Of a DNA stretch of 9,150 nucleotides, positions 4,456 through 5,109 are shown one piece after another. A program made the translations under genes and the position numbers. Location: NCBI RefSeq assembly GCF_003334255.1, contig NZ_QOWU01000091.1, one strand, 5' to 3'. Position 1 is the stretch's first letter. Each line of letters begins with the position of its first letter. Source of the DNA: Escherichia coli. GTDB taxonomy: Bacteria; Pseudomonadota; Gammaproteobacteria; Enterobacterales; Enterobacteriaceae. Below the pieces are notes generated by a model. That model was given only the letters and a program-made list of their open reading frames with translations, did not search any database and had not been told where the DNA came from.

Positions 4456-4728
4456 AATCCCGGGTCCCTGTTTTTAATGATACCAGCCACCGCCGTTTCC
4501 GTCACCGGATAAACCCTGACCCAGAAGTGTGCACGGGTAACACCTGATGCCTCAGCGGAAGAGACCTGCCACCACAGGACGTGTCAACGACCGGAGCGTG
4601 CTCTTTAACGCCGTGAACGGTTCACTCTCTCCTGACGTCGCCGTACGCATCAATCTGTAACACCCTTCCACCGTGCAATGTCCCTCTGGACTGAGGGCGT
4701 CCCATGTCTGTTGCAGTAACGCCACCAG

Positions 4729-5109
4729 GTGCGAATCCGCGTCATCAGCTGTAATCCGGGTACCAAGGGGATACATGCCGCTTACGATGACCGTATGACA
4801 GAAATTCTGCGAATTGCGAAAACCTACGAGCCCATGCTGGATTACTGGGAACTGGTTGTGCAAAACGCATCAACAATTGCCTCTCATACAGCAACAAATC
4901 GCCCCTCACCAGAAGCGATTATGGCAAACTACCAACTGAATGAACAATTACTGGAGGGATGCAGACCCTGGATTGTTATTTTTGATGACGTTCTTACTGC
5001 CGGTAGTCATTTTAAAGCGATGAAAAGCCTGATACTACAACATATTCCGGAAGCCTGTATACTGGGGCTCTTTGTTGCCCGTACAACTCGGGGAGCTCAA
5101 ATTATTTAA
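4729..5109 (+). CDS. Small phosphoribosyltransferase-motif protein (ComF/GntX-like PRTase C-terminal region); possibly 5'-degraded
   Basis: 126-aa ORF from GTG 4729 (or 104 aa from ATG 4795). It contains WIVIFDDVLTAGSHF (4972..5013), a close match to the type I PRTase PRPP-binding signature, ~40 aa from the C-terminus as in ComF/GntX proteins. No convincing RBS; upstream 4456..4728 has no intact frame. Confidence 0.4.
   Translation: MRIRVISCNPGTKGIHAAYDDRMTEILRIAKTYEPMLDYWELVVQNASTIASHTATNRPSPEAIMANYQLNEQLLEGCRPWIVIFDDVLTAGSHFKAMKSLILQHIPEACILGLFVARTTRGAQII

Follow-up and report, generated by a model that had tools for sequence, protein, structure and literature searches.

We conclude, at a probability of about 0.9, that the short open reading frame (ORF) ending at position 5109 of a 9,150-nucleotide stretch of Escherichia coli DNA (contig NZ_QOWU01000091.1; the whole stretch is called the window below) is a 5′-truncated, inactive remnant of shosT, the phosphoribosyltransferase (PRTase) toxin gene of a short ShosTA subtype. 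Both the family and this kind of relic are already known, and the pseudogene is an ordinary one. In the ancestral island, an operon of overlapping shosA (297 amino acids, aa) and shosT (208 aa) genes was convergent on an unrelated AEP-helicase gene. An earlier note, made from the letters alone, had described a short ORF with a near-canonical phosphoribosyl pyrophosphate (PRPP) motif and 104-126 intact codons, placed tail-to-tail with a helicase gene at a distance of 17 bp; all of this is found in the sequence, with the ORF stop ending at 5109 and the helicase stop codon beginning at 5127. Its suspicions of a truncated PRTase-type gene or relic, and of a defence role, were also borne out: the remnant comprises codons 98-208 of a ShosT gene, and the family is the one that PADLOC names ShosT, a defence toxin.

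Identification of the ORF as part of a shosT gene

The homologues of the window ORF numbered 75 (best E 7e-62). Complete ones are 208-218 aa long, and the ORF aligns with only their C-terminal half. When the closest full-length homologue, an E. coli protein of 208 aa (P0001), was compared with the window by tblastn, the match was confined to 4756-5106, corresponding to residues 92-208, and the DNA homology with the intact gene (L004:8001-8627) begins exactly at 4775, corresponding to codon 98. The first 15 codons of the ORF (4729-4773) have an origin other than shosT. The PADLOC ShosT profile (PDLC03962) matches P0001 over residues 4-203 with an E value of 1.5e-50 and the remnant with an E value of 2.8e-25, in the latter case at profile positions 99-213 of 237 only, so that the remnant has neither the length of about 208-218 aa nor the coverage of the whole profile expected of a full-length ShosT. 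Because of the 75 database homologues and this profile match, the ORF is far beyond chance. Window positions 4300-5300 are 99.5% identical to the E. coli chromosome of Ecol_AZ146 (NZ_CP018991), in which PGAP places the start at the equivalent of ATG 4795 and labels the product, WP_016237738.1, 'hypothetical protein'.

The general family libraries gave no Pfam match for the 126-aa ORF or P0001 and no NCBIfam family for P0001 or the remnant; in Pfam, Pribosyltran was reached at E <= 1e-3 by only one of 29 relatives. The AlphaFold2 model of P0001, calculated from a 29-sequence alignment, has a pLDDT of 89.7. Compared with the PDB by Foldseek, this model matched best H. pylori ComF 7p0h (E 5e-6, TM 0.53 on the query), and the next three of the best four matches were the ShosT structures 8zvc, 8zvd and 8zvb (E 2e-5 to 8e-4), with ordinary purine and pyrimidine PRTases ranking below. 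The remnant alone represents only about half of this ComF-type PRTase fold.

The proposal that the gene is ComF/GntX-like thus holds for the fold and not for the family. No ComF profile of NCBIfam or Pfam matched P0001 or the remnant. The full-length homologues have one invariant cysteine (C25) and no paired CxxC motifs in the 29-member alignment and therefore contain no 4-Cys zinc finger. Neither were zinc-finger remnants found in any plus-strand frame of 4456-4728, nor competence genes in the annotated contexts of window-type or intact E. coli loci.

Residues lost and retained in the remnant

An alignment of 29 diverse family members contains 29 invariant columns. The deleted part takes 14 of these 29 residues (D9 to S93) and includes the VPVPPSK motif, which is invariant in the family and is proposed to be the equivalent of the pyrophosphate (PPi) loop. 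In the P0001 model, the deleted part forms two strands (residues 24-32 and 85-89) and two helices. What is retained is the PRPP-binding loop, in which D168, D169, V170, L171, T172, G174 and H176 are invariant in the 29 members. The D-D pair of the window (4984-4989) corresponds to D168/D169 of the family and was aligned by hhalign with D331/D332 of crystallised ShosT, the remnant's loop being paired with KKILVIDDFCTEGN of APEC O1 ShosT.

The retained part carries a lesion of its own. Arg122 is invariant (29/29) and is present in the intact copy of contig L004, whereas the window and the O157:H7 copies encode tryptophan. The distance from R122 to the D-D pair is 46 residues, equal to the R285-DD spacing in long ShosT, in which R285 is essential and contacts the 5′-phosphate of PRPP; hhalign did not map R122 onto R285, and the equal spacing alone is only suggestive. 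Since two remnants with different truncation points share R122W, this point mutation may have inactivated the toxin before the deletions occurred.

Intact shosA-shosT loci

In intact E. coli contigs, the start of the 208-aa shosT gene and the end of a 297-aa gene overlap by 4 bp. The product of this upstream gene matches Pfam DNA_processg_A, PADLOC ShosA (E 4e-103) and PADLOC PsyrA (E 8e-27), as well as the DprA model TIGR00732 below its cutoff. ShosA-ShosT pairs were found in seven other genomic settings in six genera, with no helicase beside them: on Salmonella chromosomes, in a Tolumonas lambdoid prophage, in a Burkholderia gladioli defence island beside AbiE and pAgo, on an Enterobacter mori plasmid, near cos in the P2-like Burkholderia phage Mana, and on further phages and plasmids. 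In every intact locus examined, shosA adjoins shosT, co-oriented and with a short overlap, which is 4 or 8 bp where the gene calls are consistent and longer in the phage Mana record, in which the annotated starts differ. The window remnant has no such adjacent shosA. Judging by this gene order, the conserved partner of ShosT is the DprA-like ShosA and not the helicase.

The 'intact' E. coli ShosT of 208 aa ends in GAQII, and its orthologues in Salmonella, Enterobacter, Serratia and others carry an acidic tail of about 13 residues (D-A-D-x-x-S-L-F-D...). On comparison of L004:8600-8627 with the 3′ ends of two orthologous loci (L009/L020), the E. coli homology stops after 'ARTxR', and five unrelated codons stand in place of the 13-codon tail; the corresponding window positions are 5092-5109. 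As the shosT homology ends right before the helicase side is reached, this side was probably joined secondarily; for the same reason, and because the acidic tail is missing, the function of the E. coli ShosT variant itself is unproven.

The upstream DNA and the rearrangement junction

The 319 bp at 4456-4774 were found in 80 E. coli genomes and adjoin the gene of an Rpn-family recombination-promoting nuclease in all four contexts examined. On their minus strand lies the coding sequence for the 74 C-terminal residues of an unrelated hypothetical protein of 256 aa; these are 89% identical to residues 183-256 of the product of L018:3096-3866(-) (BLASTP, E 5e-47). The 256-aa gene is intact in strain DXMF6-3R, there in a YfjJ-type island, and other E. 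coli genomes have it upstream of the Rpn gene. From this arrangement, the Rpn gene appears to have arrived together with the flank 4456-4774. A 103-aa ORF on the minus strand combines, at its C-terminus, the 74 aa of the 256-aa gene with 29 N-terminal residues that are antisense to the shosT remnant, and is a by-product of the junction. The earlier note had found no open frame in the 273 bp upstream, which is correct for the plus strand, as all three of its frames contain stops within 4456-4728, and overlooks this minus-strand ORF.

The exchange can be placed at a 3-bp microhomology. With a slash for the break, one parent (L018) reads ...GGATACATG/AGATCC, the other (L004) reads ...CGTACAGATG/CCGCTTACG, and the window reads ...GGATACATGCCGCTTACG across the junction. 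The GC content changes from 0.53-0.555 over 3301-4900 to 0.43-0.445 over 4801-5500. Exactly this junction is common to seven complete genomes, and Ecol_AZ146 and N2456 are among the strains that carry it. No similarity to ShosA was detected in the window (best tblastn E 1.0), and the intact ShosT protein gave no tblastn match upstream of 4756. No promoter-like site was found on the plus strand within 4300-4795; the sole site near 4456-4795 lies on the minus strand at 4505-4477, just upstream of the Rpn gene, which it is predicted to fit. Rfam had no match in the remnant region or in the whole window.

These data bear on the idea of a ComF/GntX-like gene whose zinc-finger domain decayed in place by point mutations, with the 273 bp as former coding DNA. 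The closed plus-strand frames are what such decay would leave, the PRPP loop lies near the C-terminus as in ComF, and the fold of the full-length homologue is closest to the H. pylori protein. However, 4456-4774 is homologous to a different locus and encodes, on the minus strand, the end of another protein; the intact protein finds nothing upstream of 4756; and the CxxC pairs, a ComF match in NCBIfam or Pfam, and neighbouring competence genes are all absent. We consider this explanation almost certainly wrong. The upstream DNA is foreign (Rpn flank plus antisense gene tail, joined at 4775-4777) and not a decayed N-terminal domain; what has been lost is the first half of the PRTase fold itself, along with the entire antitoxin gene upstream.

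The shosT remnant would then have arisen by illegitimate recombination at the 3-bp microhomology, which joined the cargo of another island variant, namely the Rpn nuclease gene and the tail of the 256-aa gene, to shosT codon 98. A single event between the cargo regions of two related islands is the most economical reading. With it, shosA, the promoter of the operon and shosT codons 1-97 would have been lost, leaving a product that presumably neither folds as a PRTase nor is toxic.

Several observations concern the Rpn gene, which lies directly beside the microhomology junction. The C-terminus of its product (encoded at about 3540-3600) contains four GMAQ repeats in a row (AQGMAQGMAQGMAQGV), and the C-terminal part has a weak PADLOC match to 'putative invertase' C3a178 (E 5.9e-9). 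Rpn proteins promote RecA-independent recombination. A role of the nuclease in the rearrangement is speculation.

Truncated copies across E. coli genomes

In a census of 5,426 complete E. coli genomes, 688 contained some shosA-shosT DNA, and at least 80% of it was kept in only 38 of these 688; the remaining genomes sampled carry differently truncated 3′ stubs. In the O157:H7 type, what remains begins with residue 59, next to an IS30 fragment, and carries both R122W and an in-frame stop (W163*); in the O104:H4 type it begins with residue 130, next to ISEc22. Thus, three truncated lineages were examined, window type included; in each of them shosA is gone and the toxin gene is 5′-truncated, and the substitution at the invariant arginine is common to two of the three. 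Loss of the antitoxin alone is not tolerated according to the literature on the long type, and for this reason inactivation of the toxin would accompany it.

The helicase gene is covered to at least 80% in 684 genomes. About 1000 further complete E. coli genomes have only a 200-360 bp stub of its 5′ end, downstream of a YfjJ-like gene; in two such genomes (L023 and L024), the stub is followed by unrelated cargo, a 1652-aa AAA protein in one and the aerobactin locus in the other. The site appears to be a hotspot of cargo exchange, with eroding cargo or defence genes downstream of the YfjJ-like gene.

The same comparison can be used to weigh whether co-option has given the remnant a new role, be it as a small protein with a PRPP loop or as a 3′ flank or terminator region for the helicase gene. 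The last 79 codons (about 235 bp) were spared in three independent truncations, and helicase transcripts must presumably end inside the shosT remnant, because the 17-bp spacer is too short for a terminator. Against this, W163* of the O157:H7 copies falls inside the shared part, so that no common protein is kept; no minus-strand terminator-like site was found in 4300-5300, nor any Rfam match; and in at least one genome an IS3 family element has removed the whole remnant together with the 3′ end of the helicase gene, which fits neutral erosion. Co-option is hence extremely improbable.

The convergent helicase gene

The 788-aa helicase is 100% identical to a protein (P0076) with Pfam domains PF22548, PF01896, PF00270, PF04851 and PF00271, and matches the PADLOC PrimPol profile with an E value of 1.8e-141. 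The search for protein homologues did not reach beyond E. coli proteins with 92% identity or more, and more distant contexts were obtained by tblastn against plasmids. Full-length homologues were found on plasmids of Pantoea (81% identity), Massilia (70%), Aeromonas (68%) and Paracoccus (49%). No DprA or PRTase neighbours were seen beside these four, although the PLSDB gene tables are incomplete and the absence is to be taken as probable. The tail-to-tail placement of shosT and helicase was seen in the E. coli island only, which also carries AlpA, YfjI/DUF3987 and a YfjJ/Gp2-like gene and of which one copy is on plasmid pCP127.

The earlier note had proposed a link between the PRTase gene and this helicase and suggested a comparison of orthologous loci: intact E. 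coli loci do have a full-length PRTase gene beside the helicase gene, and the homologues of four other genera have none. We regard it as very unlikely that the PRTase gene, whether intact or a remnant, works together with the convergent AEP-helicase in the manner of ComFC and ComFA, or of the DprA-like PsyrA and the RecQ-like PsyrT, with ShosA as the third gene of the system. The 17-bp spacer is the same in every E. coli copy seen, chromosomal or on pCP127 (in L004, shosT ends at 8627 and the helicase gene at 8645). PsyrTA/RqlHI does combine a DprA-like antitoxin with a helicase toxin, and escape mutations from ShosTA lie in phage SSB and primase-helicase genes, as cited in PMC12961424. However, the seven settings of ShosA-ShosT pairs, among them those in Salmonella, Tolumonas, Burkholderia, Enterobacter and phage Mana, have no helicase; helicase homologues of 49-81% identity in four genera occur without DprA/PRTase neighbours; the helicase ORF is full-length in several hundred E. 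coli genomes in which ShosTA is destroyed; and the end of shosT homology just before the helicase-side junction suggests a secondary juxtaposition. The proposed linkage is thus contradicted from both sides, and it fails on the refuting observation that the earlier note had itself named, a helicase in related genomes with no PRTase gene beside it. Pfam names PF22548 after an AEP-TOTE 'conflict system', and a PRTase as a conserved component of it was not seen with the four helicase homologues; literature searches for 'TOTE conflict system' returned no defining paper.

A stronger form takes ShosA-ShosT and the AEP-helicase as one unit, in which the primase-helicase would make or sense the single-stranded DNA (ssDNA) signal for the antitoxin and the stub would serve as the 3′ end or terminator of the helicase gene. 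If true, it would explain the fixed 17-bp spacing and the sparing of the last ~235 bp; we hold it to be highly improbable.

The helicase region (5110-7517) is only 95.2% identical to Ecol_AZ146, compared with 99.5% for the adjacent Rpn-shosT stretch, which suggests recombinational mosaicism inside the island. At 99% identity or more, the helicase was found in only one complete genome. In every E. coli copy an inovirus-Gp2/YfjJ-like gene lies upstream of it; in Massilia the start of the helicase gene is overlapped by a gene for a 183-aa hypothetical protein, and the Aeromonas homologue follows a NYN-domain gene. Judging by gene order, a small protein encoded upstream may thus be a partner of the helicase.

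The intact system and points against its interpretation

By analogy with long ShosTA, the toxin of the intact system would bind PRPP and disturb purine metabolism and DNA replication, the DprA-like antitoxin would counteract it via ssDNA and RecA, and phage infection would release the toxin, leading to abortive infection.

The following points weigh against the interpretation of the ORF as a dead remnant of a ShosTA toxin gene. The dN/dS ratio between the remnant and an intact copy is 0.26, on only 15 substitutions, and does not by itself show relaxed selection; the remnant may also be transcribed by read-through. The short family has no significant sequence match to the characterised long ShosT: no significant match among PDB sequences came from phmmer or profile searches, the best hits being PRPP-loop matches to unrelated PRTases (E 0.36-0.72, the profile best being 0.36), and when the family profile was compared by hhalign with residues 1-399 of APEC O1 ShosT, the PRPP loop alone was aligned, at 1.2% probability. 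The experimentally characterised ShosTA systems are all of the long type, with a HAD/PPase-like N-terminal domain and a PRTase domain, and in the literature no direct test of a short-type pair was found. Transfer of the mechanism to the short family depends on the PADLOC name, the DprA-like partner and the similarity of the fold.

Features of the window

The positions of the features are compiled in Table 1. To the left of the Rpn gene, the window contains gene debris on the minus strand (2445-3285, 1979-2287 and 63-683), named from the PGAP annotation of a near-identical genome: fragments of a type I N-6 DNA methylase gene (frameshifted, with an internal stop), a partial EpmB-like gene and a frameshifted IS110 transposase gene. 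At the other end, the ~940 bp beyond the YfjJ-like gene (8212-9150; GC 0.35-0.39) gave no long ORF and no Rfam match.

Table 1 Positions of the features in the window and on which strand they lie.
Feature	Position	Strand	Remarks
iolR	906-1739		Intact; next to the gene debris
Rpn-family recombination-promoting nuclease gene	3478..4455	-	PGAP start equivalent to 4446; annotation from 99.5%-identical locus
Tail of unrelated 256-aa hypothetical gene	4552..4774	-	Last 74 codons
Chimeric antisense ORF, 103 aa	4552..4863	-	C-terminal 74 aa from the 256-aa gene, N-terminal 29 aa antisense to the shosT remnant
ORF under study	4729..5109	+	126 aa from GTG 4729; 104 aa from ATG 4795
Rearrangement junction	4775..4777	.	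3-bp microhomology 'ATG', common to both parents
shosT remnant, 5′-truncated pseudogene	4775..5109	+	Codons 98-208 and stop of the 208-aa PRTase-only ShosT gene
TGG (Trp) at invariant Arg122 position	4846..4848	+	CGG in intact copies
WIVIFDDVLTAGSHF motif	4969-5013	+	Encoded within the ORF
PRPP-binding loop IVIFDDVLTAGSH	4972..5010	+	Retained; D-D at 4984-4989
Spacer, shosT stop to helicase stop	5110..5126	.	17 bp, convergent; same length in intact loci
AEP (PrimPol)-SF2 helicase gene	5127..7493	-	788 aa (ORF 788/796 aa); Pfam AEP-TOTE
Inovirus-Gp2/YfjJ-like gene	7648-8211	-	187 aa; upstream of helicase in every E. coli copy

Significance

The remnant has little biological weight of its own. 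It calls for an annotation correction, as WP_016237738.1 and the unlabelled stubs in hundreds of E. coli genomes, including O157:H7 and O104:H4, are shosT pseudogenes, and it gives a clean example of the erosion of a toxin-antitoxin defence module. The failure to transform a delta-shosA construct fits the joint loss seen in the three truncated lineages. A tempting but false PRTase-helicase linkage is removed. Defence-system predictors that score a single PRPP loop or a ShosT half-match could miscount such remnants as systems.

Comparison with known systems

ShosTA of APEC O1 defends against T7 and lambda (Rousset et al., construct pFR105; PMC9122126). Its ShosT has 424 aa and is known from PDB 8ZVB, 8ZVC and 8ZVD; it binds PRPP, couples PRTase and pyrophosphatase activities, and perturbs purine metabolism, with DNA over-replication, filamentation and death as the result (PMC11961720, PMC12961424). 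On its own, ShosT is toxic; the toxicity is lost in D331A/D332A, and ShosA provides rescue from it (PMC11961720, PMC12961424). Transformation with a delta-shosA construct proved impossible (Millman et al., preprint, bioRxiv 10.1101/2022.05.11.491447). ShosA is a dimeric DprA-like ssDNA binder that neutralises the toxin via RecA without binding it, and the system is triggered by T7 Gp0.7 or phage ssDNA (PMC11961720, PMC12961424). The intact homologues of the window ORF resemble this system in matching the ShosT and ShosA profiles, in the antitoxin-then-toxin order of overlapping genes, in a fold as in the ShosT crystals (Foldseek E 2e-5), in the PRPP loop with its essential D-D pair, which the remnant has kept, and in the carriage of the pairs by prophages (including P2-like ones), plasmids and defence islands. 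They differ in belonging to a short, PRTase-only subtype of 208-216 aa, which does not have the 164-aa N-terminal pyrophosphatase/HAD-like domain of the 424-aa ShosT and has no detectable sequence similarity to the crystallised protein outside the PRPP loop. The window copy, without residues 1-97 and shosA, is not a working member.

With ComFC/ComF/GntX (7P0H), the family shares the type-I PRTase fold, the PRPP loop in the C-terminal part and functional ties to ssDNA and DprA biology; it differs in having no 4-Cys zinc finger, no ComF profile match, no ComFA or competence context, and an identity of 12%. The system of a reverse transcriptase with msr/msd RNA is alike in its PRTase-fold abortive-infection effector, a link to ShosT cited in PMC9122126 and PMC12961424. 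Neither the reverse transcriptase nor the RNA is nearby here (Rfam found nothing in the window), and the partner is DprA-like. In PsyrTA/RqlHI, a DprA-like antitoxin is paired with a helicase toxin (bioRxiv 10.1101/2022.05.11.491447; PMC12278908), and DefenseFinder places PsyrT among SF1/SF2 helicase-domain proteins (PMC12278908). The DprA-like antitoxin is the common element, as the ShosA of the intact loci matches PADLOC PsyrA (E 8e-27), whereas the toxin here is PRTase-only and the adjacent helicase is an AEP-fused SF2 protein whose gene lies in the opposite orientation and is no conserved neighbour of the pair.

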